Counted from the first letter of the stretch, positions 2,895-24,111 are shown. The stretch: DNA of 32,000 nucleotides from Candidatus Heimdallarchaeota archaeon (GCA_030668875.1 DAOVER010000013.1:40934-72933), one strand, 5' to 3'. The notes: generated by a model from the letters alone, not told the origin. Numbers and translations: made by a program.

Positions 2895-3182
2895 TCATAA
2901 ATCTGAGTTATCGACAATTACATCTTTAGTGATGGGTTCAGTGACGTAAATATTCACTGCTTCAGAAAGAGTGTTCATCTCACCTTTATTGTATTTATCT
3001 ATTCTTAACTCTACACACTTGTTACATAAACCAGCGGGTATAATTATGTTTGAAACTAACTCTTTTTTCTCTCTACTTGAACATCTTCCACAAAGTGGCT
3101 GACCACAATTAGAACAACAATATTTAGCTCTAGATCCACATTTAGAGCACGTAGTTTCGAAAAGTAGAATTATCTTAACCAA
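2895..3182 (-). CDS. Small 8-9 Cys zinc-finger protein (FYVE/B-box-like spacing)
   Basis: CSKC-x6-CCSNC-GQPL-CGRC-S-x17-CNKC; TTG start with upstream GTGAT SD-like sequence; ends 13-43 nt before the MFS start. Confidence 0.75.
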   Translation of the reverse strand: MVKIILLFETTCSKCGSRAKYCCSNCGQPLCGRCSSREKKELVSNIIIPAGLCNKCVELRIDKYNKGEMNTLSEAVNIYVTEPITKDVIVDNSDL

Positions 3183-3629: not shown

Positions 3630-3661
3630 TAAGTTCGCTCCTACTAATATATGATAAGTTT

Positions 3662-3685
3662 TGTATTTAAACTAAAGTAAATACA
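3662..3685. promoter_or_regulatory. Inverted repeat overlapping the TATA box of the hydrolase gene (candidate operator)
   Basis: TGTATTTA-n8-TAAATACA with perfect 8-bp arms. The minus-strand TTTAAATA at 3671-3664 overlaps the left arm. Confidence 0.45.
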
Positions 3686-3733
3686 GCGTCTTACATTTAA
3701 CAAAAGAATAACAAGAAACTGAATATGCGCTTT

Positions 3734-3886
3734 CTAAGATTCACCATTCAGAGCACTTTCACTCATTTTAAAAATTCTTGGCGACATTCCAAGCACGAGC
3801 GTATAGAAAAGCAAATTACATACTTTACAGTATTGTTTATTTTCTCCTATTTTGACTAAAAATTTACCGCATCTTTGGCATTTCAT
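3734..3886 (-). CDS. 50-aa Zn-ribbon microprotein (below the ORF-track cutoff)
   Basis: Manual translation gives MKCQRCGKFLVKIGENKQYCKVCNLLFYTLVLGMSPRIFKMSESALNGES*, i.e. CxxC-x13-CxxC. AGGTG SD lies 5 nt before the ATG. Confidence 0.7.
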   Translation of the reverse strand: MKCQRCGKFLVKIGENKQYCKVCNLLFYTLVLGMSPRIFKMSESALNGES

Positions 3887-4058
3887 TTTAACACCTGGAG
3901 ATTGTATCTAAACAGTTTCAGTTGGTATGGTATTTTAGGGTGTAATAAGATTTGTTGTGAACTTCCAATTTGGCGTAAAATATTTTTTTGTTCAATTTTA
4001 ATTTCAGAGTTTTCAGTATTTAAATTATAAGGCATTCTTCTTTACAGTATTATTTTGG

Positions 4059-4066
4059 TTTTTATA
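4059..4066 (+). promoter_or_regulatory. Candidate TATA box of the AAA+/vWA operon (leaderless-type spacing)
   Basis: TTTTTATA ends 20 nt upstream of ATG 4086. Confidence 0.45.
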
Positions 4067-4085
4067 GGTTAATCTCAGTTGATTT

Positions 4086-5219
4086 ATGAGTCAGATGGCA
4101 AAGGAAAAAATCATACGTGAACCAACAGAAATTCGAAATAGAGATGAAATTGAAGCATTAAAGCAAAATGATACTTATGATAAGCCTGAAAATTGGTTTC
4201 TCAGCCCTAGAATGGTTGAAACCTTTATTTTGGGATCCGATGAAGTACTAGAATATGAAGTAAAAGATAAGAAAAAGAAAATAAAGATAACAAGAAAATT
4301 TTACGGAGATAACGTTCTAGTACAACGAAGTATTATTACACTAGCTTCAGACAGAGGTTTGCTACTAATTGGTGAGCCTGGAACAGCTAAGAGCTGGTTA
4401 TCTGAACATCTAGCTGCAGGAATTTCGCATACTTCATTAAATGGAATTCAAGGAACTGCTGGAGTAACTGAAGATCAGATAAAATACTCATGGAATTATG
4501 CTATGTTACTGGCAGAAGGACCTTCATTGAACGCTTTAGTACCTAGCCCTGTTTATGTAGGGATGAAGGATGGGTTAATAACTAGATTTGAAGAAGTAAC
4601 AAGATGTCCTAGAGAGATCCAAGATACTTTGATTAGCATTCTTTCAGATAAGGTTCTCATTGTTCCCGAATTAGGTGAAAAAGGTGTCTTATTAGCAAGA
4701 AAGGGATTCAACATTATAGGAACCGCTAACACGAGAGATAAGGGAGTAAATGAGATGAGTTCAGCTCTTAAAAGACGTTTTAATTTTGAAACTGTACACC
4801 CAATAAAGAGCGTGAAAGAAGAGATTGAAGTTGTTCAAAATCAAACCGAGGGTATGCTTGAAAGTGATAATGTGAAGGTTGAATTCAAACATGACATTTA
4901 CGAATTGCTAGTGAAAACTTTTCACGAGCTTAGAAAAGGAGAAACGACAGATGGAGTGAAGGTTAACATACCTTCAACAGTTATGTCTACAGCTGAAGCA
5001 GTCTCTGTTGCGTATAATTCTGGTCTTTATGCACGATATTATGATGATGGGATTGTTAAACCAAAGCATTTAGCTATCAACATCAAAGGGGCTGTAATCA
5101 AAGATAACAATGAAGATATCCAGAAGCTGAATCAATATTGGGATCTTATTGTAAAACGAAGAGGATCTAATAACAAAGATTGGTCCAGTTACTATGACTC
5201 AAAGAAATACCTCATGTGA
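4086..5219 (+). CDS. yehL: MoxR-type AAA+ ATPase, YehL subfamily
   Basis: Walker A GEPGTAKS (4371-4394), Walker B variant RFEEVTRC, sensor TANTRDKGVNEMSSALKRRFNF, and the YehL-type N-terminus EIEALKQND...KPENWFLSPRMVETFILGS. Confidence 0.92.
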   Translation: MSQMAKEKIIREPTEIRNRDEIEALKQNDTYDKPENWFLSPRMVETFILGSDEVLEYEVKDKKKKIKITRKFYGDNVLVQRSIITLASDRGLLLIGEPGTAKSWLSEHLAAGISHTSLNGIQGTAGVTEDQIKYSWNYAMLLAEGPSLNALVPSPVYVGMKDGLITRFEEVTRCPREIQDTLISILSDKVLIVPELGEKGVLLARKGFNIIGTANTRDKGVNEMSSALKRRFNFETVHPIKSVKEEIEVVQNQTEGMLESDNVKVEFKHDIYELLVKTFHELRKGETTDGVKVNIPSTVMSTAEAVSVAYNSGLYARYYDDGIVKPKHLAINIKGAVIKDNNEDIQKLNQYWDLIVKRRGSNNKDWSSYYDSKKYLM

Positions 5220-5223
5220 TAAT

Positions 5224-7620
5224 ATGAGTGACCTTGACTCAAAGGAAACAATGGAAGGTATACAAAAAAAGATCCGAAAAATCGAAGACCAAACCATTGT
5301 TTACTTCCCTATTAAACATCATTCAATTGCATGTTCTCATTATCTAGAAAAGGCTATAGATTTCTATAAACCTGAAAAAATATTGATAGAACTTCCATTT
5401 GGAGCTGAAGTAAATTTACCTATTCTACAATCAGATCTAACAATACCACCTATTGCTTTACATTCATTTTACGTGGATAACCTAAATATCTTCGAATTAA
5501 ATGGAAAACTATCTCCTGATGAGAGCATCCCAGTAAGATTTGAAGGATACCATCCTATTGTAGCTTATTCACCTGAGTATCATGCTATACAACTAGCTAA
5601 AGAAAAGGAAATTGAGGTGGAATTTATTGATCTGCCTTTGTATAATATTATTCCTTATAGATTTAAGCAATCCTCTATATCTTTGTTCTATCCCGATGAA
5701 AGATATTATGAATTTAATGCATATGGAGCTCTCTTAGCAAAGAAATTACGGTGTAGGAATTTCCATGAGGTTTGGGAAACAATGTTCGAAACAAACCTTG
5801 ATATGAACTTTCAAGAATTCATGAGGAAACTTTATATATTCAGCTTAGTTGCGAGAAGTTCCCTTTCAGAAGAATTTCTAGAACAGGAGGGAGCTAATAT
5901 TCGTGAAGAATTTATGAAGTACAGAATAAAGAAAAGTTACCAAGATATACAAGAAAAAGATCGCAAAGGTAGTTTGTTAGTTGTAACTGGTGCCTTTCAT
6001 TCTGTTGTTTTGCCCTTTCTAAAAGGAAAAACTCAGAAAATAAGAAAAAAAGAGAACGTAATAATAACCGTTCCATACACCTATAATCAATTAGCTCTTT
6101 CAAGTGGATATCAATCAGGAAATCCAGCACCCAGATATTATGATAAATTATGGTCCAATTTACGAAATCCAGACATCAAGGATATTAAAATTGCAACATT
6201 AAATTTAGCTCTTGAAGTGAAAAATCAATCAAGAGAATATGGATCATTTGTTAGTGTTGCTGATAGTGTTCATGTTTTTAGAATGGCTCAAAACCTAGGC
6301 AGTTTCAGAGGAAAAGAAACCACTGGTTACTATGACTTAGTGGATGCTGTTAAATCAGTTTTTATCAAAGGTGATGAGAAAATATACGGACCCTCGATAT
6401 ATCGTGCTCTGGATGAAATACTCATAGGAGATGAGTACGGGACAATAGATCCTAATTTATCAACTACGCCTCTACTAGCTGATTTCCAATACAGAGCAAA
6501 GAAATTACGAATTAAGTTAGCTGCTGCAACTAAGTTGATGAGATTGAATTTGTACCAAACAAGTACTGCAAAACTAAAGTCACAATTCCTTCATCAGACA
6601 GTTTTTCTAAATTTAGGCTTTGGAGAAATGATAAAGGGACCAAATTTGATAAAGAAAGAGAATTTACACCTACTTGCGGAACAGTGGAATATTGCTTATA
6701 ATCGTGGTGTTGAAATTAAATTAATCAGTTCGATAAGTTTAGGTAATACTGTTAGAAACGCTTGTTTAACACTCCTTAGAGAAAAATTTGCTTCTACTGG
6801 AGAATCTGGCGTGGCAAGTGAACTTTTGTTAGTAGCTGCACAAATGGGTTTAGTTGAAGTGCTTGATGATTTAGGGAAACAGCTGATTGATATTATAGAT
6901 AAAGATCGTGATTTCAAAAGTCTCGTTCAAGCTCTCTACCAATTAGTTGCACTTTACAATTATCAAGAATCCTTGTTAACTGAAGGATTTAAACCTCTCC
7001 TAAGACTAATAGAACAAGCATATATCCGAGCAACTTTTCTAGTACCTTCAATTCTTCTGATTCAGGAAGATGAAGAGGAAACTGTAATTGAAAAAATCAA
7101 AGCCTTAACAAACTTTATTCTATCTTTTGATGATATTGAAGTTGATAAGAATCTCTTCATAGGGCAGATTAAGACAACTCTTACAAACGGAAAAGGAAAC
7201 CATGCAGTGAAAGGTGCATTAACCGGTGTTTTATATTCCTTACACGAAAAGAAAGTTGATGAATTGACACGGGAAATCAATGGTTATTTCGTAGGTGGAG
7301 CTTCTCTAGATGGAGGTAGTTTTGTTTATGGGTTGTTTATGATTTGTAGAGAAATATTACTACTGAAAGAAGATTTCTTTGATCGAATAGATAATTTAGT
7401 ATGTCAATTTTCTAATGAAGATTTTCTAACAATTTTACCATTATTTAGACGATCATTTTCTCTTTTTACACCAAAGGAAATTGATATTATCGGTTCCAAT
7501 GTTGCGCAGAAAAGAGAAATAGAAAAAATGGAAAAGATAGAGATAAGTGGAAATCTAGCTGAACTTCTGCATTTTGCTGACCAGTTAGCAGGAAGTAAAT
7601 TCGAGGAGATGGGCTTATGA
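5224..7620 (+). CDS. DUF5682 family (YehM-like) protein; N-terminal TIKI/TraB-like motif set followed by a long helical region
   Basis: PIKHHS, KILIELP, AYSPEYHA, IREEFM, VVTGAFHS and PYTYNQL..SSGYQSGNPAP. It lies between the YehL ATPase and the vWA gene. ATG 5224 is preferred to 5194, which overlaps yehL by 26 nt. Confidence 0.88.
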   Translation: MSDLDSKETMEGIQKKIRKIEDQTIVYFPIKHHSIACSHYLEKAIDFYKPEKILIELPFGAEVNLPILQSDLTIPPIALHSFYVDNLNIFELNGKLSPDESIPVRFEGYHPIVAYSPEYHAIQLAKEKEIEVEFIDLPLYNIIPYRFKQSSISLFYPDERYYEFNAYGALLAKKLRCRNFHEVWETMFETNLDMNFQEFMRKLYIFSLVARSSLSEEFLEQEGANIREEFMKYRIKKSYQDIQEKDRKGSLLVVTGAFHSVVLPFLKGKTQKIRKKENVIITVPYTYNQLALSSGYQSGNPAPRYYDKLWSNLRNPDIKDIKIATLNLALEVKNQSREYGSFVSVADSVHVFRMAQNLGSFRGKETTGYYDLVDAVKSVFIKGDEKIYGPSIYRALDEILIGDEYGTIDPNLSTTPLLADFQYRAKKLRIKLAAATKLMRLNLYQTSTAKLKSQFLHQTVFLNLGFGEMIKGPNLIKKENLHLLAEQWNIAYNRGVEIKLISSISLGNTVRNACLTLLREKFASTGESGVASELLLVAAQMGLVEVLDDLGKQLIDIIDKDRDFKSLVQALYQLVALYNYQESLLTEGFKPLLRLIEQAYIRATFLVPSILLIQEDEEETVIEKIKALTNFILSFDDIEVDKNLFIGQIKTTLTNGKGNHAVKGALTGVLYSLHEKKVDELTREINGYFVGGASLDGGSFVYGLFMICREILLLKEDFFDRIDNLVCQFSNEDFLTILPLFRRSFSLFTPKEIDIIGSNVAQKREIEKMEKIEISGNLAELLHFADQLAGSKFEEMGL

Positions 7621-8990
7621 AGAAAAGTGATGAGATTTTAGAACTATTAAATGATGATGTTAACAGATGGAGACTAATTTTAGGTAAATATAGCTATAAA
7701 CAACTTGAATTTCAAGAAGATAGACAAGATCCACTTTTTGGAAAACCTGACTTATTAACAAATCAAAAACGACAACAACAAGCTCCTGGTCAAGGTGATG
7801 GTCAACGTAAACAACAAATGAAATCTGGATCAAGTCAAGCTCCTGGTCAAGGAACAAAATCTAAAATCCCCCAATCAAGGCAAAGGCAAAAAACTTCTGG
7901 AAGATCACAGAGAGGAGGAACTGGGGGACAAGGTATGCCAGGAATTAACTCCTTACAACAGATGGATGAAACGTTATCATTCTTGTATCAACGCGAATAT
8001 GAAATGAGAGACGAGCCAGACACAGGACCTAAATCAGCTGGAAAAAGCTCAGGAGGTATTTCTATACCTCGTTGGATAAACAATGTAAAGGAACTATTTC
8101 CAGATGACGCAGTCAAAATACTGCAAAATGATGCTTTACATCGGTATAAACTCTCCCAACTTGTGATTGATGGAGATATGATCGATGAAATAGAACATGA
8201 TTTTGACTTACTAAAAGCAATTTTAGAATTCAAGAATCTAATGAAACCAGATGTTCTGGAAAAAGCTAAAAAAATAATTCGTAAAATTGCCCAACAGCTA
8301 GCAGATAAAATATTTTTGGAAGTTCAACCTGCTCTACTTGGAAAAATTCACAAAAATGAACATTCTCCACACAAGAGATTTAATTCAACTGATTGGAAGA
8401 GAACAATCGAGCATAATCTCAAGAATTACGATAAAGACATGAAAAAGTTGATCGTTGAACGAATTTTCTTCTGGGAAAGAAGAAATAAGATGAGATATCA
8501 TATAGTTCTTGTAATTGATCAGTCAGGGAGTATGACAAGTTCGGTGATATATTCTGCAGTTATGGCTGGAATATTCAACTCTCTTCCAAATGTAGATGTG
8601 TCCCTTGTAGTGTTTGATACTCGTGTTGTGGATTTATCAAATCAAGTAGGAGACATTGTTGAATTATTGTTAAAAGTACAACTAGGTGGTGGTACAGATA
8701 TAGCTTCAGCTGTTGAGTTTTCAGCTAAAAAAGTTGAAACTCCAGAGAGAACTTTATTCATATTACTTACTGATTTTTATGAAGGTGGAAACCGCCACAA
8801 ATTGATTGCGACAATTAAAGAATTACAAGCTTCTGGAACAAAAATGATCGGTTTAGCAGCTTTAGATTATGATTATGCTGCAAATTATGATCATGAATTA
8901 GCACGCAGAGTGGAAGAAGCTGGAATGAAAGTAGCTGTTCTTTCTCCAAAGGATTTAGCAGAATGGGTAGCTGAAAATATGGGGTCGTGA
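7617..8990 (+). CDS. vWA domain protein (YehP/CoxE-like partner of the MoxR ATPase)
   Basis: N-terminal RWRLILG; MIDAS DQSGS at 8517-8531, GGGTD and LLTDFYEG; ATGA overlap with the upstream stop. Confidence 0.92.
   Translation: MKKSDEILELLNDDVNRWRLILGKYSYKQLEFQEDRQDPLFGKPDLLTNQKRQQQAPGQGDGQRKQQMKSGSSQAPGQGTKSKIPQSRQRQKTSGRSQRGGTGGQGMPGINSLQQMDETLSFLYQREYEMRDEPDTGPKSAGKSSGGISIPRWINNVKELFPDDAVKILQNDALHRYKLSQLVIDGDMIDEIEHDFDLLKAILEFKNLMKPDVLEKAKKIIRKIAQQLADKIFLEVQPALLGKIHKNEHSPHKRFNSTDWKRTIEHNLKNYDKDMKKLIVERIFFWERRNKMRYHIVLVIDQSGSMTSSVIYSAVMAGIFNSLPNVDVSLVVFDTRVVDLSNQVGDIVELLLKVQLGGGTDIASAVEFSAKKVETPERTLFILLTDFYEGGNRHKLIATIKELQASGTKMIGLAALDYDYAANYDHELARRVEEAGMKVAVLSPKDLAEWVAENMGS
7779..7852 (+). 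repeat. 17-nt direct repeat (QAPGQG x2) in the low-complexity insert of the vWA gene
   Basis: caagctcctggtcaagg at 7779-7795 and at 7836-7852. Confidence 0.85.
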
Positions 8991-10273
8991 AAATGAGTGA
9001 AAATGAAATGATAACTGAAAACATGCAAGAAAACCTTCCAGAATTAGATTTGAAACAACTTGACGAAAAAGAAGAAGAAGTAGTTCCTGAAAGAGTAGAG
9101 CTGCCTGAAAATATTGAACCAGCTCTTGATAAAATAAGAGATTGGTTTAACAAACTTTTTCTTTACGGTGTTCAGAGGATATCCAAGGATAACATCGAAG
9201 AGTTACAAGCTCTATCTATCACAGCACACACAATTAAAGTTGCTAGATTAGAAAGAGATATTCAGTCGATGAGTAAAATACTTGAATTATATTTGAAAAA
9301 AGATCCAACATTTAATTTTACACGATTAACATCAACTCTTTCAAGAATTTCATTAACAGCAAAAACAATTCATGATTATAAAGAAGGAAAAGAGCTACCG
9401 ATTCAGCTGATTAAACTACTTACTGGAGCAAAAGAAGAGAAACAAGAATTTGATCTCTTAATTGCCCAAACTTTAGGCCTAAGTGGCTGGATGACTGATT
9501 CAGGATACGTGGGTGTAACTGCCTATTTGTATGACTTGACAAATAAAAGAATCATAGCAGCTACAAATGCTCGACCTTTAACATCCTTGCAATATATGAA
9601 TAATCGCAGAGGTAGATATGGTGGATATAGAAGATCAAGAAGCTCAAGATCTAATCTCAATTCTGAACTAAAGAATATAATGCTGATAAATGAATTGGAT
9701 ACTAATTCTAATATCAAAATAAAGGATTTTTCAGCTTCTGCCTTTCAGATTAGAAATGGAAAAATATCAAACGATTATCCTGCAAAGCTATCTCTTGGTA
9801 AATATCTTCGAGTTCATAGATACAAAGCAATTCCTTGGACTTCTACAAGGTTTCAGAATATTCGTTTTGATGACTGGAATGAAGTTCACACTAAAATTCA
9901 GGAAGTTGAATCTGAAGGAAAAACACTCTTTCCTCAACTTTTTGGGCTGTTCAAGGTGAAGGCTTTTTCCCCGATGGAACACGATGAAGTTGAAAAAATA
10001 TACAAATTCAAAGCTTATGATAAAAACTATGACAGCATGAATATAGTGATTCCGGATAAAGGTAGAAATCAATATGCAATTGAATCATTCAAAGATTTAT
10101 TCCAGAATAAGACTTTTCCTTCGATTATCTTTGGCCAAGCTAGAATAGGTTCTGATGGTAATCTGTCCTTATGGCCCATCAGTGGCATATGGAGCAAAGG
10201 TATGATGCTTTCTAATTATAGTATTGTTAGAAGTTGTGATTTCACTCTAAATAAAATGAGGTTCAAAAGGTGA
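8987..10273 (+). CDS. YehQ-like protein lacking the SWIM zinc fingers
   Basis: GTGA overlap with the vWA stop (alternative ATG at 8993). The helical bundle LFLYGVQR...ARLERDI, the motif LGLSGWMTDSGYVGVTAYLYD...NARP and the C-terminal YAIESF...IIFGQARIGSDGNLSLWP resemble the non-SWIM part of YehQ-type proteins (recalled similarity). No CxC...CxH motif is present. Confidence 0.7.
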   Translation: MKMSENEMITENMQENLPELDLKQLDEKEEEVVPERVELPENIEPALDKIRDWFNKLFLYGVQRISKDNIEELQALSITAHTIKVARLERDIQSMSKILELYLKKDPTFNFTRLTSTLSRISLTAKTIHDYKEGKELPIQLIKLLTGAKEEKQEFDLLIAQTLGLSGWMTDSGYVGVTAYLYDLTNKRIIAATNARPLTSLQYMNNRRGRYGGYRRSRSSRSNLNSELKNIMLINELDTNSNIKIKDFSASAFQIRNGKISNDYPAKLSLGKYLRVHRYKAIPWTSTRFQNIRFDDWNEVHTKIQEVESEGKTLFPQLFGLFKVKAFSPMEHDEVEKIYKFKAYDKNYDSMNIVIPDKGRNQYAIESFKDLFQNKTFPSIIFGQARIGSDGNLSLWPISGIWSKGMMLSNYSIVRSCDFTLNKMRFKR

Positions 10274-10277
10274 GAAA

Positions 10278-12605
10278 ATGGGATTAGTAATAACTGAATC
10301 TGAGTCGCTATCAATTGATAGATTTCTTGCTCCTCTAGAAGATATAATAATCAAAATAATACTCATAGGAGCAGATAGTTTAGAAGATATAGACATTAAA
10401 AAACTAGAGGAATTTCAGAAAGAAATAAAATTAATGAATATGAAAAACCTTGGAAATAAAGTAGCTACTTTACTAAAACTTCTAAAGAAAAAGGATAAAG
10501 TCTGGAATAACGAGGAGAAAGAGGATCTTACAATATTAACAAGTGTACTTCATCAGAGTATCTATCAAATCAAATCAAAGTTTACAAAGAACAAGGATCT
10601 TTCTAAAGACGAGAAAAAGAGTATAATAAAACCCATATCACAAAAAACTGTAAAAGAGCTGGAATTGATTCCTTTTGAGATTGAAGCAATTGGTAAGTCT
10701 AGAAGTGGAAGTGGTCAATACTCTGGTCAATACTACAAGATTAAAGGAATTAATACAGAGACAAATGAATGGATAACTGTTATAGATCACTCACAGATTT
10801 ATGCTTCAAGTGTCAACTCAGCATGGCAAAGTAGTCTGATAAATGACAGGGTGTACTTGAATAAACTTCTAGGAAATAGACTGAAAATATACAATCTTGT
10901 CCTTGAAAAGAACCAACTTTACAGGAAATCCCTAGATTCAAGAAAACAAGGTGATTTTACAGATTTAACTCAAGAAGAAAGAAAAAAATTACTTCTTGAA
11001 TTTAACAAGAAACAAGATAAAACAATTTACAGTATCAAAACTATCTCGAAATTAGAATATTCTCCTAAATACTCAAGTCCTTTCAGAATGCAAATTAAAG
11101 ATGAAGGAGGAACTAAGAAAGAGCAAGTAACCTTCTCCAATGATATTTTCTATCATATGTTCTTCAATGAAATGAAAAACATACAATTCATAGAGAAGGG
11201 AAATTATCGTATACTTTTCCATGAAGGAGACGCATATTTAACTAGTATGAAACTATCATTACCGCAGACAATCTGGGATTGGAAAAGAATAATCAAGCTT
11301 TGGATTAAGCAAGAAAATGAAACTGCCTTCCTCTTAAATCTCCAGTCATCTGAACAATTGAAAGATGATTTAGTTAAGAAAATAAATGAAAAAGCATCTC
11401 AAACAAAAATTTCGAATAAAGATATAGAAGAAGATCCCCTTTCTTACTTCATTCAAGAAAAATTATCAGATTATGTAAACTATCCATGGATTTCAACATT
11501 AGACTGGAAAAAACTAGCTCAACCCTATAACAATCTAGAATATCTGAAAAAAATGATAAAAATAGATAATTTCCTCCCATCAATTATGATAGCTTTGTCG
11601 AAAAATAAAAAACTAAGCTATAAATGTAGAGATGAAAAAATCAATCTTTGGATTCATGAATATCTAGAAAATATAATAACTCGAAAGAATCTTCGTAACT
11701 TTTCGAGACTTGTTAGTCAGAGGATTAGAAGTATCTCACATCCTAAAGAAGTTGTTCTTCTACTAGCTTTGCATCTAGAAGTTTATGGTTGTCTTACAAA
11801 TGAAGTAGCAAATTCACTCAAATATTCACCATGCTTTAACAGGAGTAAAAATTTGCGTGATTACATGGAAGCTAATCCCAAAGATAGATTCTGGTTGAGT
11901 TGTATCAGATTATTCTCAGAAGTAGAGATAATTGCTAATTGGGAAAAAGCTGTTAAATCCTGGATGAAAAATAAAAAAGAACACTTATCTTTATACCTTT
12001 TAGCTCAATCTAGATTACTCTCTAAAGATATACGGAAAATCATTTCGTCAAAAATACAAAAAACTCAACTTGAGAGTTGTTTAGATAAAGAGGACAATGT
12101 TCAGAAATTTATCATTAAAAAGATGTCTAAAATAGGTATTAAGTTACCATGGAAAACTAGTGTTAACTTGAAGTCTGATATTCAATCTGTAAAGAATGTA
12201 GATAAAACAAATCCCTCAATAACGGACCACTACAGTGGCTTATTGATCTATCTCACAAAAGATAAAATAGTTCTAGAAAAATATGAGAAACAGAAGAAAT
12301 ATTGTTGGGGTTTTGCTCTGATAAAGGAATTAATGAATGAAGCGAATATGGATAGATTATGCCGAATTACTTCTCAACTAGTTTCAAGTTCTCCAAAATC
12401 TTCATCATATCTATGGGCTCTATTCAAAGAACACTATGAAGATATACCAAAACCATTACTGCAAAGGATAAAGAACTCAAGAGCAGTAACTGATTGTAAA
12501 CAATTAAATGCTTATATCGAATCAGGAATAGAAGAAAGATTCTACTATTCTTGTTTAGCTTTGATAAATGAAAAAGAACTTGAACCAACGTTAAATGTGC
12601 ACTAA
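10278..12605 (+). CDS. Large hypothetical protein (775 aa), last gene of the operon; N-terminus resembles the preceding gene, C-terminus is helical
   Basis: Long ORF starting 4 nt after the upstream stop, Lys/Leu-rich, with no TM segment or catalytic motif recognised. Confidence 0.8.
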   Translation: MGLVITESESLSIDRFLAPLEDIIIKIILIGADSLEDIDIKKLEEFQKEIKLMNMKNLGNKVATLLKLLKKKDKVWNNEEKEDLTILTSVLHQSIYQIKSKFTKNKDLSKDEKKSIIKPISQKTVKELELIPFEIEAIGKSRSGSGQYSGQYYKIKGINTETNEWITVIDHSQIYASSVNSAWQSSLINDRVYLNKLLGNRLKIYNLVLEKNQLYRKSLDSRKQGDFTDLTQEERKKLLLEFNKKQDKTIYSIKTISKLEYSPKYSSPFRMQIKDEGGTKKEQVTFSNDIFYHMFFNEMKNIQFIEKGNYRILFHEGDAYLTSMKLSLPQTIWDWKRIIKLWIKQENETAFLLNLQSSEQLKDDLVKKINEKASQTKISNKDIEEDPLSYFIQEKLSDYVNYPWISTLDWKKLAQPYNNLEYLKKMIKIDNFLPSIMIALSKNKKLSYKCRDEKINLWIHEYLENIITRKNLRNFSRLVSQRIRSISHPKEVVLLLALHLEVYGCLTNEVANSLKYSPCFNRSKNLRDYMEANPKDRFWLSCIRLFSEVEIIANWEKAVKSWMKNKKEHLSLYLLAQSRLLSKDIRKIISSKIQKTQLESCLDKEDNVQKFIIKKMSKIGIKLPWKTSVNLKSDIQSVKNVDKTNPSITDHYSGLLIYLTKDKIVLEKYEKQKKYCWGFALIKELMNEANMDRLCRITSQLVSSSPKSSSYLWALFKEHYEDIPKPLLQRIKNSRAVTDCKQLNAYIESGIEERFYYSCLALINEKELEPTLNVH

Positions 12606-12616
12606 TCTATAGATGG

Positions 12617-12642
12617 TTCTTTCTTTTTTTCTTTCTTTTTTC
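12617..12642 (+). terminator. Archaeal oligo-T terminator (two CTTTCTTTTTT copies)
   Basis: ttctttctttttttctttcttttttc begins 12 nt after the operon's last stop codon. Confidence 0.7.
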
Positions 12643-12670
12643 TAGTCTATTACTTGGAATTAAATGAGAT

Positions 12671-12725: not shown

Positions 12726-13625
12726 TTGAGCAAAGATAAAACATACAAAGATAACAAGTTAATATCTCTGATATTATGTCTGATATCCTATACTTTAGCA
12801 ATTGGAGCTGCTATAGGTATTGGAATTGCATTACATCCTCTACTACATCCAATCTTGACTGCCTTTATTGTTGATGTAATAGCAACTGTGATAATATTTA
12901 GCATTAGTGTTTTCTTCAAGAATACTAGTCTTTATGATCCCTACTGGAGTTTTATTCCAATACCCATCATATTGTATTGGTTAATCACAGCTGATAATTA
13001 CCCAACAATAACAATAAGACAGATAGTAATAATAGCAATAGTAGCTATTTGGGGGATAAGGTTGACTTTTAACTGGATTAGGGGTTGGAAAGGCTTAAAT
13101 CATGAAGATTGGAGATATACGAAATTTAGAGAAGAGAAACCTAGTTTGTTCTGGTTCATAAATTTCACAGGATTACAAATGATGCCTACATTGATAGTAT
13201 TCTTAGGTTGTATTCCTATTTATTTCGGTATAATCTCAACAAGCTCAACATTTACAGTTTTTGATATAATTGGTATAATAATAGCTTTGGGAGCAACAAT
13301 TCTAGAAACAGTAGCAGACGAACAACTCAGAAACTTCGTCAAGAAAAAGCAAAAAAACGAATTTATGACAAAAGGAGTATGGTCAGTTACCAGACACCCC
13401 AACTACTTTGGAGAAGTTAGTTTCTGGTGGGGCATGTTTTTCTTTGCAATAGCAAATGGAGTATCTACTCTATGGGTGGTAGTAGGACCTATAAGTATGA
13501 CAATATTGTTCTTGATAGTAAGTATCCCCTTGATGGAGAATAGGTTAATGAAGAAATATCCTGGTTATACTGACTACAAATCCAGAGTATCTTCATTTAT
13601 CCCATGGTTTGAGAAGAGAAATTAA
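12726..13625 (+). CDS. DUF1295 / steroid 5-alpha-reductase-like membrane protein
   Basis: YDPYWS, WGIRLTFN..RGW....EDWRY, ADEQL and RHPNYFGEVSFWWG; multi-TM; TTG start with GGTGA SD. Confidence 0.9.
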   Translation: MSKDKTYKDNKLISLILCLISYTLAIGAAIGIGIALHPLLHPILTAFIVDVIATVIIFSISVFFKNTSLYDPYWSFIPIPIILYWLITADNYPTITIRQIVIIAIVAIWGIRLTFNWIRGWKGLNHEDWRYTKFREEKPSLFWFINFTGLQMMPTLIVFLGCIPIYFGIISTSSTFTVFDIIGIIIALGATILETVADEQLRNFVKKKQKNEFMTKGVWSVTRHPNYFGEVSFWWGMFFFAIANGVSTLWVVVGPISMTILFLIVSIPLMENRLMKKYPGYTDYKSRVSSFIPWFEKRN

Positions 13626-13704
13626 CACTCTTCCTCTAATACCAACAGCAACTTTTATTTCTAACCTATTTCTAGTTAAGCTAAAACCCAATGAAAGTGG
13701 TACC

Positions 13705-14709
13705 ATGATTGAAAGTAAAGCTAAACCGAAATTAAAAACAAAACATATAATTTATATCGTTTTTGGGGTAATCTTTCTTGCTCTATTAGTACTTTTCTTC
13801 TACAGCAGATTTGTTCCCGGTAACTTTATTGAAAACTACTACAACGATAATGCAGCGGAAGGAGCAGCTACATTCAATGAAATGATGAGTAATTTTGTAG
13901 ATTCATTTTTCATCTATACACTAATCGCAGTAGTGATTATTTGGCTTGTAGAAATATCTCTAAGGACTTTTAAACATAAGATAAGTGACGATATTGAAAA
14001 TACTATCCGAGTTCTGATAAGATTCATCGTGATAATTTTCTTTGTTGTAGCATATTTGAATAAACTTGAAAGCTTTCAAGGAGCAGTCATAGGTGTGATG
14101 GCAACAGTTGGTGCAGCTTTTGGTATTGCTGCTTCAAGATCCCTAAGTAATGTCTTTTCAGGTCTTCATCTTGTTTTGAGTAAGCATCATAACGTTGGTG
14201 ATTACTTGATTATTAATGATATGAATATTGAAGGAGTTGTAAAAGAAATTTCTACAAGTTTTGTTACCATCCTTCAACCTAATAAAACAACAGCTGTTAT
14301 ACCTACAGATAAACTACGTGAAGAGGAAGTTTTAAACATTAAAGTAGAGAGCATTGAAACTGAGAAAGACGGTATAACTCATTTATTTTTATATGGAAAA
14401 AGAGTCAAGGAAACTCATTATGTGTATCCTGTAAAATGGGCTACTCACTCAGATGATCGACACTCTCACGCTGTAAAAGCAATTATGGAAACTGGTGAAG
14501 ATTTCAAGGATTATATAGCTGATGAAGTAGATTGGATGATATATGAACGTGATAGACTTAATAGAAGATACTTGATAAGTTTAACAGTTCTCGACCCTAA
14601 GGTTTTACTCCACTTAGCTTCTGATTTCACTCGTATATTAGAAGCAAACTACGAAAAAATCAAGTATTCCAACAAAAAGAAATCTACAAGTAAGAAATCT
14701 GACGTATAA
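13705..14709 (+). CDS. mscS: Small-conductance mechanosensitive channel (MscS family)
   Basis: TM helices, then GAAFGIAASRSLSNVFSGLHLV...HNVGDYLII...IEGVVKEISTSFVTILQPNKTTAVIP. ATG 13705 is preferred because 13609 overlaps the upstream gene. Confidence 0.85.
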   Translation: MIESKAKPKLKTKHIIYIVFGVIFLALLVLFFYSRFVPGNFIENYYNDNAAEGAATFNEMMSNFVDSFFIYTLIAVVIIWLVEISLRTFKHKISDDIENTIRVLIRFIVIIFFVVAYLNKLESFQGAVIGVMATVGAAFGIAASRSLSNVFSGLHLVLSKHHNVGDYLIINDMNIEGVVKEISTSFVTILQPNKTTAVIPTDKLREEEVLNIKVESIETEKDGITHLFLYGKRVKETHYVYPVKWATHSDDRHSHAVKAIMETGEDFKDYIADEVDWMIYERDRLNRRYLISLTVLDPKVLLHLASDFTRILEANYEKIKYSNKKKSTSKKSDV

Positions 14710-14762: not shown

Positions 14763-15809
14763 TTATCTATCATTATTTTGCTTTAAACCTCTTAACCATA
14801 GGAACAAATCGATTTTGCAATTGGGACATTTACTATTCTGCTCTAACCATGTTATGAGGTGTTTTTTATGTGAATATGTCTCACAACATGGTGTTTTAAC
14901 AACTACATTCTTTTCAGAAGGTTTTAAGTCAAGCAAACAGACTTTGCATGTTGGTCTATGAGCACCACATTGATCACATGTCTCCTCATTTGCTTCAAAA
15001 ACATTACCACACTGATAACAAAGGATTTCCTCAACTTCTATGTCATCAAAATCCCTCTGTAGAAGATTTGTATATATCTTCTCAAGAAGCTCAAGATATG
15101 TTGATACTTTTTCACTATTATTAAAACGAGCATTTACAAATTTACGATTCATTGTAAATTGCTTCAAATCTTTTTTCAAATTAATTAGCATATTGTTAAT
15201 TTCTTCTTTTTCAAGTAGACTCTCATAGAACGAGTGATGATTTGAATGAAAAATGTAGAACTCACTGGAACTAGGTAAATCAACATCATTACCAGTATCA
15301 ATCTTCTTTCTAGTTTTCCGCTTTATACTGAAAGCTAATGGATAATCTGCTTTCATCATCGTATCTATAGCTATTTCATTTACTGAAAGAACTTTTATTG
15401 TTGTTCTATGAAAGAAATTGTATTTATGCTTCTCAGGGAAATAAAAAATAATTCTAGGAACTTGATCAAGCTGTTTTTCTATAATATCTCCACCAAGTTC
15501 TCTAATGTTAAATGCAATTTTAGTGAGTATCTTTTCTTTATCAGTAACCAGATCCTTAACATGGTCGATATAGACTTCTGTTAATTTGGAAGGCTTACGA
15601 GTTTCTCTCTTCAATTTAACATACCAATAAATACGCAAAAAAATGGGGATAATTATGATACATCCTACAACATAGAAAAGGAAATAATAGAACCTGAAGT
15701 TATTGCCAACTAAATCATATGAAATGAAAAATCCACCAGCGATGACAGCAATTATAAAAATTGCTGATAGAAGGCGTTTTAGATAATATTTATTCATCAT
15801 AGAACACAT
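14763..15809 (-). CDS. Membrane-anchored double-zinc-ribbon + RING-type protein (putative E3 ligase-like)
   Basis: Two N-terminal TM helices; C-terminal CYQC..CDQC zinc ribbon followed by CKVC-x15-PCC-x4-HKKH-x3-W-x6-CPNC (14817-15020). Confidence 0.85.
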   Translation of the reverse strand: MCSMMNKYYLKRLLSAIFIIAVIAGGFFISYDLVGNNFRFYYFLFYVVGCIIIIPIFLRIYWYVKLKRETRKPSKLTEVYIDHVKDLVTDKEKILTKIAFNIRELGGDIIEKQLDQVPRIIFYFPEKHKYNFFHRTTIKVLSVNEIAIDTMMKADYPLAFSIKRKTRKKIDTGNDVDLPSSSEFYIFHSNHHSFYESLLEKEEINNMLINLKKDLKQFTMNRKFVNARFNNSEKVSTYLELLEKIYTNLLQRDFDDIEVEEILCYQCGNVFEANEETCDQCGAHRPTCKVCLLDLKPSEKNVVVKTPCCETYSHKKHLITWLEQNSKCPNCKIDLFLWLRGLKQNNDR

Positions 15810-16607: not shown

Positions 16608-17816
16608 ATGATGCTCGTTAGACGGACTGAACGGATAAAAGTGAAACCTAGTTTCACGCTTATGCAGTTAGCAAGACAGAGCAAAAACGTGTATAATTAT
16701 GGAAATTATATCATCAAAAGACAACTGAAAAATAGTAAATATATGACCTCAGAGTATGAATTAGTAAGTATAATCCGTTATCATCCTTGCTATACGAAAT
16801 TTATCGCTCACTCAGCACAACAGACGATAAAATTTTTAGTAAAGAACTGGAAAGCGTATTTCAGAGCGATAAAAGAGTACAAGAAGCACCCGCAAAAATT
16901 CCTCTCTCCACCCCATGCGCCCAAATATAAGAAAAAACGAGGGTTCCACACCATCTACTTCACAGCTAACCAAGCAAAAGTGAAAGAAGAGGGGTGGTTG
17001 CATTTTCCCAAAAAAGTAGGGCTGAAAGTGAAAACAAGGCTGGAGAAAGGAAGGAAGATCAATCACGTCCGTTTACTCCCTAAAGGGACGTGTTTTATCT
17101 TAGAGATAATTTATGAGCGAGAAATAAAACAAGAGCCATCGAAACACTCCCTCCGAGCAAAGAATATCTTAGCCATAGATTTAGGGGTGAATAATCTCTT
17201 GACTTGTGTGAGTAACTGCGTTTCCCCTTTCCTCATCAATGGGAGGAAACTAAAAGCTAGCAACCAATGGTATAACAAAGAGTGTGCCCGTCTCCAATCT
17301 ATATACGATTTACAAAGATTAGAAAATTACGGGCAGGGGATGAAGAAGGTTATAGACAAACGCTATCAACGGGTGGAAGATTATCTTCATAAAGCTTCAA
17401 GGATCGTCATCGACCAATGTTTGCAACATCGCATAGGTACCATTGTTATTGGTTATAACAAGAAATGGAAACAGAAAAGTAAAATGGGGAAGAAAAGCAA
17501 TCAGATTTTCGTCTCTATTCCTTTCTTAAGCTTGGTACGCAAACTTCAATATAAAGCTGAAGAGGTAGGGATAAAAGTCATCTTGACGGAGGAAGATTTT
17601 ACATCCAAATGTTCATTTTTAGATAACGAGGTAATCAAAAAACATCCCAAGTATCTAGGAAGAAGGTTGAAAAGAGGTTTATTCAGAAGCAAAACCGGTA
17701 TCCTGCTTAACGCTGATTGCAACTCAGCTGGTAATATCGGTCGTAAAGTATTCCCGCTGGTCTTCACCTACGGGACAGTGGATGCCGTGAGTCATCCTCA
17801 CTGTTGGACTGTTTAG
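16608..17816 (+). CDS. tnpB: RNA-guided endonuclease TnpB
   Basis: RuvC-I AIDLGVNN, rearranged RuvC-II (IVIGYN..WKQ with the Glu in TEEDFTSK) and RuvC-III LNADCNSAGNI; N-terminal SKNVYNYGNYIIK; degenerate Zn finger (KCSFLD). Confidence 0.93.
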   Translation: MMLVRRTERIKVKPSFTLMQLARQSKNVYNYGNYIIKRQLKNSKYMTSEYELVSIIRYHPCYTKFIAHSAQQTIKFLVKNWKAYFRAIKEYKKHPQKFLSPPHAPKYKKKRGFHTIYFTANQAKVKEEGWLHFPKKVGLKVKTRLEKGRKINHVRLLPKGTCFILEIIYEREIKQEPSKHSLRAKNILAIDLGVNNLLTCVSNCVSPFLINGRKLKASNQWYNKECARLQSIYDLQRLENYGQGMKKVIDKRYQRVEDYLHKASRIVIDQCLQHRIGTIVIGYNKKWKQKSKMGKKSNQIFVSIPFLSLVRKLQYKAEEVGIKVILTEEDFTSKCSFLDNEVIKKHPKYLGRRLKRGLFRSKTGILLNADCNSAGNIGRKVFPLVFTYGTVDAVSHPHCWTV

Positions 17817-20961: not shown

Positions 20962-23900
20962 ATGTCAAAAAACTTTCCTTTCGATTTATGGATTTCAACT
21001 GGAAGTGATTCCGGGATTAGTTTTGCAACAGTAGGTAGATTAGCTAGAGATTCAAGTATGATGCAAGGAATCTTACTTTCACTCCAATCATTAATGACTA
21101 CAGAAGTTGAGGTTTCAAATTCACAGTTTATGACAGGCGAGAATGAGTTTGTAAAATTTGGTACGTTTACAATAGCTGAAGAAGCTGACACCGTTGTTGT
21201 TCAATATGTTGTCAAATCAGATGAAGCGAACAAACTTTCAAAAGAAAATGAAATGTTAGTTCAGGGGCTAGCACTTTCATTCTGCAAATTCATCGTCCTA
21301 ACACCAAATTTTCATAGGAATCTAAATACAGGAAAAATGATATCTTTAGATTACGTATCGAAAGCATATCTCAAAGCTTGTACAATTGCTAAACAAAAAG
21401 TTGCAGTAAGTAAGAATAATGAAGCATTAATTGATTTGATAAATGAAAAACTCAAATTAATAGAAGACAAACCTGAGGATTTCCCCACTGTTTTACAGTT
21501 GAAAGACATTGAACAATGGATTGGAGAGGAAGAAACATCCTGGGATAAAGGGTCAATTTCTCCTTTTAAGAGACAATTATTAGTACAGATGGTAGCACAA
21601 GACATTCTTAATCAAATCATCTTAGAAGATCCGTTTGTCATATTAGAATATGAAACACCGAGATATACAATAGAAGAAATAAGGAATACTATTGAATTAT
21701 ATTTGCAGAAGAAACAATATAAACCAGAGGAATTAATAGATCTCTACTTAGCGAAGAACCTACAAGAAAAAGTTAATGTTAACTTAAAGAAACTGAATAT
21801 AAGTGAGATACATACTGCAAAGACCTTTATAGCGAATAACCTCGCAAAGGAGATTATTTACAATATAGCAAAAGAAAACCCATTATTAACTCTTACAGAT
21901 TTTCGTAATATTCCACTTTATACTGCAATACAAAATCAAATTACAACTTTAACAGATGTTCCAGATCCTGGAAGTATAATCTGTAATGGTCTTATGGAAG
22001 ATGTTACTCCCTTAGTTTTACAAGGAGCAAGACTGTTCTTTAAACAACTTATTATCCCCTTTGAGGGTAGAAAATTACCAACAAGTATATGGAATGTCAT
22101 AGTTGATTTCACTTTTTCAATATTAGATGAAAAAAGGCTTACTCAAAATTCGAAAACAAAGAAAATAGGTAAAACTGCTATAGATTTTAAACGTGGAATT
22201 ATTAAGGAAAGATTATCCAGGCTAACAAATGTCCATCCTGAATGGATAGAACAACTTATAGACAAATTTGATAATATGGGAGTTGGAAAACAGCTGCAAA
22301 TATCCAACATCGAGGAATCTGTTCTGTTTGCTAGTGCATTAGAAAAAGCAATTATCACCACATTAGAGAAAATGGTGAAAGATCAGCTGTTTAATTCCAA
22401 TCTTGGTGATATATTTACTTATATGATCAATGCATTCAGAGATATTGCACCAAAGACAGTTCTGGTCAACGTTCTATCAAAGGTTATAGTAGATGTCAAG
22501 TACAGAGGTTATGAAACAGCGAAACAAATGAGTTTAACTGCAAAAGATTTAATAGGTTCAGCAATTGATGAAGGAGAAATTAAAGCATATGTTAATTCAG
22601 TATCTGTACAAAACAAAAGGTCATTTTTCAAAGGGTCACATCTACGTTTTGATGGCAGAACAATCTCATCAAATGAGCTTCTTCAGAAACCAGGAGTGAC
22701 ACTGAGTTTAGGGAACAAGATATTCCCATTACGAGATGTTGAAAAAGATGCTGAGTTTCTCACTACTTGTTTCACTAATTCAAAAGTTCTTAAGAAGGCA
22801 TATGCTAAAGCAGTTCTACGAGGGATGGTCTCCTCTTATTTGCAAAAAATGTTCTCATTTGAAGGAGAAGTAATAAATCTAATAGATACTTTGATAACTG
22901 TTTTCAATAGAGAAATGGTGGGTAAACTAACTCCAGCTCATCGAATACCAGACATTCAAAATGGTTTTCCATCCTTCCCACAGATTCGAGACATACCTCA
23001 AAAGTTCGCAGGAAAACACTTCCATGAGAGATGTCAAGACAGTTGGAATGATTATGCTCCAAAAATCCAAAAAACTATTCAGGATCTTTTAGCAGGATTT
23101 TCTAACTTGAGAAAGAATGATTTGAGTTACAAGAAGAAAGCAATGCGTTTATACAATAGAGCAATCAAAGAGCTGAAGGGTATAAGAAAGAACCTACTCA
23201 AGAATTGGAACCCATTAAATGATCAAATGACAAAGGTTGTTGAGAAATGGTCCAAAGATGTTAGTATAGATCTTAGTGGTCATCTTAATGAAGTTAGTAA
23301 GAATGTTACCAATTGGACTGGTGATATATTCAAATTACAAAAATTAGATTACGGTAAATTCACGATATCACTCAAAAGAGCACAAAAAGAGATAATCAAC
23401 ACGATAAAAGACATTCATCCAAAGGAGTTTAGAGATTTACCCAAAAACTTCATGGAAATAGCATTGTCAATTTTATTGTACAGAAGAATACCTGATTATG
23501 TCATAGATGAGTCTTATAATCAAATGATTAGCGGTGAAAAGCGTGTAGCAGAAGCAGTACTTCGAGCATGGGGTAGAAGTAAATCCAGAAGTGAGTTCGA
23601 GAACAACCTTTATCTTAATATGCGAGCTCTAGGAAACACTTTCACGAAAATCATCAACACCTATGGAAGACTAACAAGCACGTTTTTCATTAAAAATGAT
23701 ATTGAGTTGTCAAGTGATAAGAAAGGCCACTTCATTACATTGGGATCAATACCTAAAGAAATCTACGAAACAAAAACCAAGGTATTATCAATGCTCCAAT
23801 TTCCCAATGTTGAAGCAGTAAGCAGTAGTAAAAACTGGGAAATAAGACTGTATCTAGAACCCGAATATAGAAGATCTATGGATGAGAATAGGGATCGGTT

Positions 23901-24111
23901 GATTGTAATGAGCGATATCATTAGATTTGTAGCACGAATGAAGTTTGAAGAAAATACTGGTCCTGTAATCGAAGGAATAAAAGCTGTAATTCCATATCTA
24001 ATAGAAGATGGAGACACCAATATTATAGAACTATCTGAAACGTTGAAGGAAGCGCTGTTCATGCTATCGGAATATCCAACACAAGTAATTGAAGAGAAAG
24101 TAAAGAAATAG
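20962..24111 (+). CDS. 1049-aa hypothetical protein: N-terminal longin-like domain + long alpha-helical region
   Basis: Intact long ORF. The first ~145 aa follow the bb-a-bbb-aa longin order with helix DSSMMQGILLSLQSLMTTEV. No TM segment or NTPase motif was seen. Confidence 0.8.
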   Translation: MSKNFPFDLWISTGSDSGISFATVGRLARDSSMMQGILLSLQSLMTTEVEVSNSQFMTGENEFVKFGTFTIAEEADTVVVQYVVKSDEANKLSKENEMLVQGLALSFCKFIVLTPNFHRNLNTGKMISLDYVSKAYLKACTIAKQKVAVSKNNEALIDLINEKLKLIEDKPEDFPTVLQLKDIEQWIGEEETSWDKGSISPFKRQLLVQMVAQDILNQIILEDPFVILEYETPRYTIEEIRNTIELYLQKKQYKPEELIDLYLAKNLQEKVNVNLKKLNISEIHTAKTFIANNLAKEIIYNIAKENPLLTLTDFRNIPLYTAIQNQITTLTDVPDPGSIICNGLMEDVTPLVLQGARLFFKQLIIPFEGRKLPTSIWNVIVDFTFSILDEKRLTQNSKTKKIGKTAIDFKRGIIKERLSRLTNVHPEWIEQLIDKFDNMGVGKQLQISNIEESVLFASALEKAIITTLEKMVKDQLFNSNLGDIFTYMINAFRDIAPKTVLVNVLSKVIVDVKYRGYETAKQMSLTAKDLIGSAIDEGEIKAYVNSVSVQNKRSFFKGSHLRFDGRTISSNELLQKPGVTLSLGNKIFPLRDVEKDAEFLTTCFTNSKVLKKAYAKAVLRGMVSSYLQKMFSFEGEVINLIDTLITVFNREMVGKLTPAHRIPDIQNGFPSFPQIRDIPQKFAGKHFHERCQDSWNDYAPKIQKTIQDLLAGFSNLRKNDLSYKKKAMRLYNRAIKELKGIRKNLLKNWNPLNDQMTKVVEKWSKDVSIDLSGHLNEVSKNVTNWTGDIFKLQKLDYGKFTISLKRAQKEIINTIKDIHPKEFRDLPKNFMEIALSILLYRRIPDYVIDESYNQMISGEKRVAEAVLRAWGRSKSRSEFENNLYLNMRALGNTFTKIINTYGRLTSTFFIKNDIELSSDKKGHFITLGSIPKEIYETKTKVLSMLQFPNVEAVSSSKNWEIRLYLEPEYRRSMDENRDRLIVMSDIIRFVARMKFEENTGPVIEGIKAVIPYLIEDGDTNIIELSETLKEALFMLSEYPTQVIEEKVKK

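Follow-up and report, generated by a model that had tools for sequence, protein, structure and literature searches.

A diverged YehL-type MoxR AAA+/VWA operon, probably complete, in a Heimdallarchaeon and built without SWIM and DUF4132 parts

In a stretch of 32,000 nucleotides from a Candidatus Heimdallarchaeota archaeon (GCA_030668875.1 DAOVER010000013.1:40934-72933; contig 13 of genome G000, which is 3.2 Mb long and 92% complete), hereafter called the window, ORF calling delineates a block of five co-oriented open reading frames (ORFs) that covers 8.5 kb of the plus strand (4086-12605). Our analysis indicates that this block is very probably one operon encoding a diverged but complete YehL-type machine, that is, a MoxR AAA+ ATPase working with a von Willebrand factor A (VWA) protein, with an ATPase-VWA-scaffold mechanism that we infer by analogy. 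The five genes, all on the plus strand, encode in this order a YehL-subfamily MoxR AAA+ ATPase of 377 aa (gene 1, 4086-5219), a DUF5682 protein of 798 aa homologous to YehM (gene 2, 5224-7620), a YehP-type VWA protein of 457 aa (gene 3, 7617-8990), a homologue of the YehQ core that lacks the SWIM zinc finger, of 428 aa (gene 4, 8987-10273), and a protein of 775 aa made of an N-terminal small helical domain, called here the H domain, and a remainder of ~670 aa (gene 5, 10278-12605). The features of YehL-type operons are thus found together, namely the ATPase, DUF5682 directly downstream of it, the VWA protein with its metal-ion-dependent adhesion site (MIDAS), the YehQ core and a helical subunit of ~100 aa, the latter forming the N-terminal domain of gene 5 and opening gene 4 as well. 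New in the Heimdall copy are its SWIM-free and DUF4132-free architecture and the H-domain fusion protein with a relative-less 670-aa body. The host had been taken for a probable Asgard archaeon in a first-pass annotation, and we could confirm this, as the homologues are named Heimdallarchaeaceae and a 96%-identical ATPase lies on a contig labelled 'Candidatus Heimdallarchaeota'.

The ATPase and the VWA protein are recognized by Pfam, by identity and by their motifs. Gene 1 matches AAA_5 (7.7e-33; aa 91-232) and is 46% identical to Escherichia coli YehL and 59-61% identical to the ATPases of two bacterial loci (L040 and L122). By aligning it with E. coli YehL and five other relatives, we found that its nucleotide-binding residues, including Walker A (GEPGTAKS), Walker B (RFEE), the sensor N215 and RR230-231, sit at columns that are invariant in the family, in line with the intact ATPase announced by the first-pass annotation. 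Gene 3 matches VWA_CoxE (1e-43), with the domain at aa 236-451 (8322-8969), and is about 40% identical to E. coli YehP. As read from the sequence, its MIDAS is complete (D-Q-S-G-S, GGGTD and LLTDF), which agrees with the intact MIDAS VWA protein proposed earlier. The VWA domain is preceded, at residues ~45-110, by a low-complexity stretch rich in Q, G, S, K and R (…QQQAPGQGDGQRKQQ…GGTGGQGMPG…), and E. coli YehP (378 aa) is shorter than gene 3 by roughly the length of this stretch.

Gene 2, the only DUF5682 copy in the genome, matches this family near full length (8.5e-86, profile positions 2-695 of 727) and shares 24% identity with E. coli YehM. Its first ~260 residues can reasonably be read as a putative metallohydrolase domain resembling TraB/PrgY/GumN of the TIKI superfamily (aa 23-264, 5290-6015, plus strand). 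Indeed, the DUF5682 N-domain aligned by hhalign with TraB proteins from other Asgard genomes (96.9%, E 1.9e-10, 196 columns), and H32, S34, E56, E118, D136 and H259 are invariant in 12 of 12 diverse DUF5682 proteins from archaea and bacteria, so that the His/Glu/Asp set expected of such a domain, of the GxxH...E...E...GxxH type, is retained. The Pfam scan of gene 2 flagged DUF5682 only and not the TraB-like domain, and sequence and profile searches of the PDB with gene 2 and with alignments A2, A5 and A7 returned nothing below E 0.02. These results give substance to the earlier suggestion that DUF5682 is a putative metallohydrolase and, together with those for genes 1 and 3, to the assignment of the block as a complete YehL-type MoxR AAA+/VWA operon.

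Genes 4 and 5 have no match in Pfam, NCBIfam or PADLOC. For gene 4, a word-based homologue search yielded five clusters, all from Heimdallarchaeaceae. However, by hhalign it matched the 380-aa gene that precedes the ATPase gene in a second family of Asgard loci, f14 (94.5%, E 8e-8, 327 columns), and an exhaustive search with a joint profile of gene 4 and its f14 counterpart retrieved 253 proteins, many of them of 500-600 aa and matched from residue 150-250 onwards. Moreover, within 80 bacterial loci collected via their ATPase, gene 4 matched 50 ORFs by BLASTP, nearly all of which are the gene next after the VWA gene or the one after an intervening yehI-like gene. Most of these 50 also match E. 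coli YehQ, and the two that were checked by Pfam both carry a SWIM finger. The best BLASTP matches are SWIM-less proteins of 410-417 aa from myxobacteria-like operons, aligned end to end (1e-28 for L040 and 1e-32 for L122), and a SWIM-bearing protein that itself matches YehQ (L070) is matched at 6e-21. Gene 4 aligned directly with the single E. coli YehQ sequence by hhalign gave no match. As for the zinc finger, neither gene 4 nor gene 5 matches PF04434 even at E 10, hhalign against SWIM N-termini was negative, and gene 4 holds one cysteine. On these sequence comparisons, gene 4 is the YehQ core minus its SWIM zinc finger. We also located an H domain near its start (aa 41-116, 9107-9334, plus strand; hhalign 95.8%, E 8e-9). 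The AlphaFold2 (AF2) model of gene 4, built from a shallow alignment, reached a predicted local distance difference test (pLDDT) of 41.7. In the ESM Atlas, genes 4 and 5 lie nearest to the same bacterial hypothetical clusters, some of them with SWIM (scores 0.93 and 0.88, low recognition), which we took as a lead only.

Gene 5 is conserved at 40-91% identity within Heimdallarchaeaceae, which argues that it is a real gene. When its profile was compared with the local ORF set, the matches were weak, but about 20 of the top 35 were small ORFs of YehL-type loci, either the ~90-130-aa ORF directly after a bacterial yehQ-like gene or the 113-aa ORF of the f14 operons. These small-ORF matches all align to positions ~10-75 of gene 5, a few of them extending to ~105, and define its H domain (aa 10-102, 10305-10583, plus strand). 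An hhalign comparison of aa 1-125 with the alignment of the small-subunit family gave 87.9%, E 3.2e-6 and a score of 37.1, whereas 60 column shuffles reached no more than 15.2 and never gave an E below 0.05, and lower scores still came from the reversed alignment (14.6) and from six further helical segments of gene 5 (11.3 or less). In the bacterial operons, the 676-aa gene 5 likewise begins with an H domain (82%, E 1e-5). Furthermore, the H domain is fused C-terminally to YehQ-like proteins in several Lachnospiraceae (fusion loci L062, L073, L074 and L106), and its profile matches YehQ-like proteins of 720-770 aa twice, at about 210-300 and about 610-695. Such fusions are Rosetta-stone evidence for a joint function of the H domain and the YehQ core. 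In a complex prediction, aa 40-428 of gene 4 and aa 1-125 of gene 5 scored 0.46 against 0.15 for the best control, with runs on custom-built alignments that agree in at least 83% of contacts and a partner pLDDT of at least 72. Of 80 solved complexes, 58 attained the mark used for such predictions, as did 2 of 110 mismatched pairs, and a score of at most 0.60 with the mark reached was seen in only 7 of the 80 solved complexes and in both mismatches that passed. The predicted contact between the gene 4 core and the gene 5 H domain therefore has weak support from modelling, and adds a little to the fusion argument.

Past the H domain, the predicted secondary structure of gene 5 is beta-rich at ~125-330 and helical at ~335-775 (low-confidence model), the AF2 model from a shallow alignment having a pLDDT of 48.5. 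Residues 335-775 found no usable match in the ESM Atlas. A comparison of aa 1-345 with the deep gene 4 profile gave E 4e-4 at 34% probability; since the middle part by itself gives E 0.07, this match mostly reflects the H domain that both proteins share. Gene 5 was also considered as a possible DUF4132 protein, and this was excluded as it matched neither the Pfam family nor, by hhalign, the single YehI sequence and the YehI-family alignment. More generally, a search for DUF4132 found none in genes 4 and 5 and none in the 92%-complete genome.

The layout of the block is that expected for one archaeal transcription unit, given its spacing, its TATA-like hexamers and its T runs. The longest internal spacer is 4 nt. 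Genes 1 and 2 are separated by a 4-nt gap (TGA, TAAT, then ATG at 5224; an alternative start of gene 2 lies at 5194, and 5224 agrees with the N-termini of homologues), genes 2 and 3 share an ATGA overlap at 7617, genes 3 and 4 share a GTGA overlap at 8987 (with an alternative ATG at 8993, the start used in several relatives), and another 4-nt gap, with GGTGA just upstream, precedes the ATG of gene 5 at 10278. Read directly, all these junctions are as the first-pass annotation had described them. The hexamer TTTAWA occurs four times, at 3666, 3767, 4019 and 4061, in the 456-nt upstream spacer that is the probable promoter region (3630-4085, plus strand), compared with four times in the entire 8.5-kb operon. 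TATA-like hexamers are thus concentrated in front of gene 1 as proposed, but the single TATA box that had been claimed cannot be picked out among them in DNA of 33% GC. Behind gene 5, a T-rich tract (12617-12643, plus strand) contains T7 at 12624 and T6 at 12636, both less than 40 nt past the last stop, while the coding strand of the operon has no run of six or more T; this agrees with the doubled oligo-T terminator, a probable archaeal one, that was suggested before. Together, these data fit the single operon proposed at the outset, predicted here as one transcription unit. A search of sequencing runs with the window sequence returned no RNA run, and its DNA matches were marine-sediment metagenomes.

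The five genes also travel together. The five genes recur in unchanged order in a sister genome (G133), with identities of 85, 67, 72, 62 and 40% from gene 1 to gene 5, and homologues of genes 4 and 5 (P0008 and P0016) lie on the same 14,030-bp contig under adjacent locus tags (ACTSQF_05330 and ACTSQF_05335), so that genes 4 and 5 are syntenic with the first three genes in relatives. In addition, a pair of DUF1295 and MscS-like genes is found downstream of the operon here (12726-14709, plus strand) and upstream of it in the sister genome (L027, 15603-17551, minus strand), the two proteins being 52% and 47% identical between the window and G133. Since this pair sits on opposite sides, the five genes behave as one block, which stayed intact while its surroundings were locally rearranged.

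Across 300 Asgard genomes, we found a DUF5682 match in 21 and gene 4 only in G000 and G133, and the DUF5682 loci fall into three architectures. The first, in these two genomes, is ATPase, DUF5682, VWA, gene 4 and gene 5. The second is that of f14 (L028-L031), in which a 164-aa SWIM-like protein, a 113-aa H-domain protein and a 380-aa YehQ core precede the ATPase, DUF5682 and VWA genes. The third consists of the ATPase, a ~1000-aa DUF5682-like protein, an unassigned part of 450-600 aa and the VWA protein (L033, 4131-11558; L034, 5550-13063; L036, 4148-11571; L035, 10626-17769). In this last architecture the middle part is one ORF or a pair of ~150 aa and ~450 aa, the ATPase is only 42-43% identical to gene 1, and the arrangement occurs also in the genus of the window. 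The SWIM-like proteins of f14 (164-172 aa; L028, 9763-10257, minus strand; L030, 11933-12427, minus strand; L031, 3276-3794, plus strand) carry the pattern C-x7-C-x7-C-x-H (…PCGGLRGKICKHII…) and are encoded upstream of the H-domain and YehQ-core genes; compared with the SWIM motif of bacterial YehQ-like proteins, they gave E 7e-5 at a probability of 62% by hhalign. From these comparisons, YehQ appears to be split into three genes in f14. No homologue of the 164-aa protein was found in the window's own genome, which has two small SWIM ORFs on other contigs, unlinked to the operon.

A tree of the concatenated ATPase, DUF5682 and VWA proteins (1527 columns) unites the Heimdall pair with the myxobacteria-like pair and f14 in a single clade, with a support of 99 in the Shimodaira-Hasegawa-like approximate likelihood ratio test (SH-aLRT), and the Heimdall pair is sister to the myxobacteria-like pair with a support of 87. 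The ATPase tree also places the Heimdall copy and f14 in the same clade. These groupings suggest that a transfer of the whole cassette between bacteria and Asgard archaea is likely. By the approximately unbiased (AU) test, Asgard monophyly is not rejected against the grouping of Heimdall with bacteria (p = 0.31), so that the transfer may have gone either way.

How the machine could work is drawn from better-known relatives. If it resembles RavA-ViaA, CbbQ-CbbO and NorQ-NorD, the ATPase would assemble as a hexamer, and the VWA protein, via its MIDAS, would couple this hexamer to a scaffold to which DUF5682, the YehQ core and gene 5 contribute, with the two H domains of genes 4 and 5 as presumed docking modules. 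ATP hydrolysis would then drive the remodelling or activation of one of the parts, the likeliest being the TraB-like hydrolase of DUF5682 or a client that it holds. The absent SWIM and DUF4132/WGR parts resemble input or targeting modules that are specific to certain lineages, and in the Heimdall operon their place may be taken by the 670-aa remainder of gene 5. It is conceivable, although we hold it rather doubtful, that gene 5 represents a fifth subunit of a new type, in which an H docking domain is fused to a ~670-aa body of beta structure plus helical repeats that functionally replaces the SWIM and DUF4132/WGR input modules. If so, this would be a SWIM-free and DUF4132-free YehL machine with a different targeting logic, and setting it beside the bacterial forms would show the ATPase, the TraB-like DUF5682, the VWA protein, the YehQ core and the H domain to be the minimal conserved engine.

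Several observations weigh against a diverged but complete YehL-type machine. The AF2 models of genes 4 and 5 are poor (pLDDT 42 and 48) and thus allow no fold-level comparison, and residues 105-775 of gene 5 match nothing outside Heimdallarchaeaceae in profile, PDB and ESM Atlas searches. Also, the comparison of gene 5 with the profile of the bacterial gene 5 family is co-linear but not significant (E 0.04-0.4), so that beyond the H domain its orthology is argued solely from position and length. The Walker B motif of gene 1 is RFEE and not hhhhDE; RFEE is typical of the YehL family, and ATPase activity is a prediction. The same holds for the co-transcription of the five genes, whereas the assembly, the ATPase-VWA coupling and the activation of the hydrolase are proposed as analogies.

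The first-pass annotation had seen in genes 4 and 5 two lineage-specific partners of a remodelled downstream module. According to this alternative, both would be clients or effectors that have replaced the ancestral module in an undescribed archaeal configuration, as suggested by the lack of Pfam, NCBIfam and PADLOC matches, by word-based searches that yield Heimdallarchaeaceae proteins only, and by the absence of an hhalign match to E. coli YehQ or YehI and of outside relatives for gene 5 residues 105-775. For gene 4 it is refuted by the end-to-end alignments with bacterial gene 4 (1e-28 and 1e-32) and by those with SWIM-bearing YehQ-like proteins, gene 4 having 253 relatives. In addition, the N-terminus of gene 5 is the small helical subunit of the family and bacteria have the genes in the same order. 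We consider the alternative unlikely as a whole. What stands of it is the ~670-aa remainder of gene 5, which has no relatives outside Heimdallarchaeaceae, whereas gene 4 is a YehQ core and gene 5 opens with a family H domain. Nor is the configuration specific to archaea, since bacterial operons keep the order AAA, DUF5682, VWA, gene 4 and gene 5 as well. We found no functional description of such a system in the literature.

A role in biological conflicts has been proposed for MoxR-VWA ternary systems, and the operon could accordingly be an anti-virus or other conflict system in which an NTPase-driven sensor/effector uses the TraB-like hydrolase as effector. Its patchy distribution, with DUF5682 in 21 of 300 Asgard genomes and in three architectures, and the clustering of the Heimdall copy with bacterial copies, which suggests horizontal transfer, are compatible with such a role. 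However, none of the five proteins has a PADLOC match, bpMoxR reaches 17.8 against a required 27 bits, no toxin-like domain was recognised, and the genes around the operon encode transporters, a channel and a membrane enzyme, with no defence or mobile genes among them. This makes a conflict role improbable, and neither the conflict machine nor the operon-encoded clients of the first-pass annotation received direct support. Alternatively, the target might be damaged DNA or chromatin, a role suggested for those bacterial relatives in which DNA damage induces the partners. Depletion of DdrO in Deinococcus radiodurans strongly induces DRA0166 (DUF4132) and DR2173 (WGR), and E. coli MolR has been reported in the LexA regulon (bioRxiv 10.1101/2021.07.07.451423); these are the only hints at a function that were found, and they pertain to partners that the Heimdall operon lacks. 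Bacterial YehQ proteins, moreover, carry SWIM fingers. In the Heimdall operon, by contrast, the very parts that would link the system to nucleic acids are missing, since genes 4 and 5 have no SWIM and no DUF4132 was found in the 92%-complete genome, and no repair genes lie nearby, so that we regard this function as very unlikely here. A diverged YehL-type machine thus remains our preferred reading of the operon.

The operon is surrounded in the window by genes for an MFS transporter, YdjM, DUF1295, MscS and zinc-finger proteins, with no defence or repair genes among these neighbours. In the flanks, small B-box zinc-finger (2895-3182, minus strand; 2e-4) and RING-finger (14763-15809, minus strand; 9e-6) proteins were found, both matches being slightly below the Pfam cut-offs. 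About 4 kb downstream of the operon, a 402-aa ORF (16608-17816, plus strand) matches OrfB_IS605 (1e-21) and a Cas12f1-like TNB domain (2.5e-8), and represents a transposon-associated nuclease gene of the TnpB/IS605 family. Further on, two ORFs of 1049 aa (20962-24111, plus strand) and 540 aa (24136-25758, minus strand), with no Pfam family at E 1e-4, are flanked by a pair of pyruvate:ferredoxin oxidoreductase genes on one side and a pair of ABC/FtsX transporter genes on the other.

The YehL-type system is among the most widespread conserved multi-gene machines without known function and includes four y-genes of E. coli K-12. While the Asgard copy leaves that function unrevealed, it helps to dissect the system. 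A variant that lacks both the SWIM finger and the DUF4132/WGR partner of the YehI/MolR type indicates that the conserved engine consists of the ATPase, DUF5682, the VWA protein, the YehQ core and the H domain, the SWIM finger and DUF4132 being dispensable. YehQ itself looks modular, made of a SWIM finger, an H domain, a core and a second H domain that is either a protein of its own or joined to YehQ or to a fifth protein, and DUF5682 keeps its TraB/TIKI-like catalytic-type residues across bacteria and archaea. These features narrow the targets for reconstitution or genetics.

For the YehL subfamily of MoxR AAA+ ATPases, yehL-yehM-yehP-yehQ of E. coli K-12, with yehI and yehK, is the type locus. 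The Heimdall operon begins like it, with AAA_5, DUF5682 and VWA_CoxE genes in this order (46%, 24% and about 40% identical), and has, in the position of yehQ, a fourth gene homologous to the core of the YehQ-like family. It differs from it in that gene 4 has no SWIM finger, that DUF4132 (YehI) is absent from both locus and genome, that gene 5, with its H domain and 670 aa, has no E. coli counterpart, and that it is an archaeal transcription unit of the TATA/oligo-T kind. A search of the literature found no paper mentioning DUF5682 and YehL only as the name of a MoxR subfamily; queries for yehM, yehP and yehQ gave a genome announcement only, those for DUF4132, SWIM and vWA unrelated papers only, and those for PafBC and SWIM nothing relevant.

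The bacterial myxobacteria-like operons (L040, L121 and L122) have the same five-gene order, with AAA_5, DUF5682, VWA_CoxE and proteins of 410 and 676 aa, and continue with one of 370 aa. This sixth, Pfam-less gene of 351-370 aa (L121, 6987-8042; L122, 12041-13153) directly follows gene 5 there, whereas the Heimdall operon has none in that position, and the gene 5 bodies past the H domain have no detectable similarity. On the other hand, the two share the highest ATPase identity (59-61%), a SWIM-less gene 4 and a gene 5 of similar length that also begins with the H domain, one gene 5 relative being named Polyangiaceae. The f14 operons belong to the same clade, have an H domain and likewise keep the YehQ core separate and SWIM-free; they differ in having the YehQ parts on three genes in front of the ATPase gene, one of them encoding the SWIM-like CxH protein, and in having no equivalent of gene 5. 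A MoxR-vWA-beta-propeller ternary system was considered and rejected, as PF20030 (bpMoxR) scored 17.8 bits against a cut-off of 27 and the operon has no propeller gene; the scan of the five proteins against PADLOC-DB v2 gave no defence-family match. Finally, RavA-ViaA, CbbQ-CbbO and NorQ-NorD are characterised MoxR-VWA pairs (PMC3893208) in which, as in the Heimdall operon, a MoxR AAA+ ATPase is encoded together with a MIDAS-bearing VWA adaptor. The Heimdall operon belongs to another MoxR subfamily than these pairs and adds three extra dedicated subunits to this common core.

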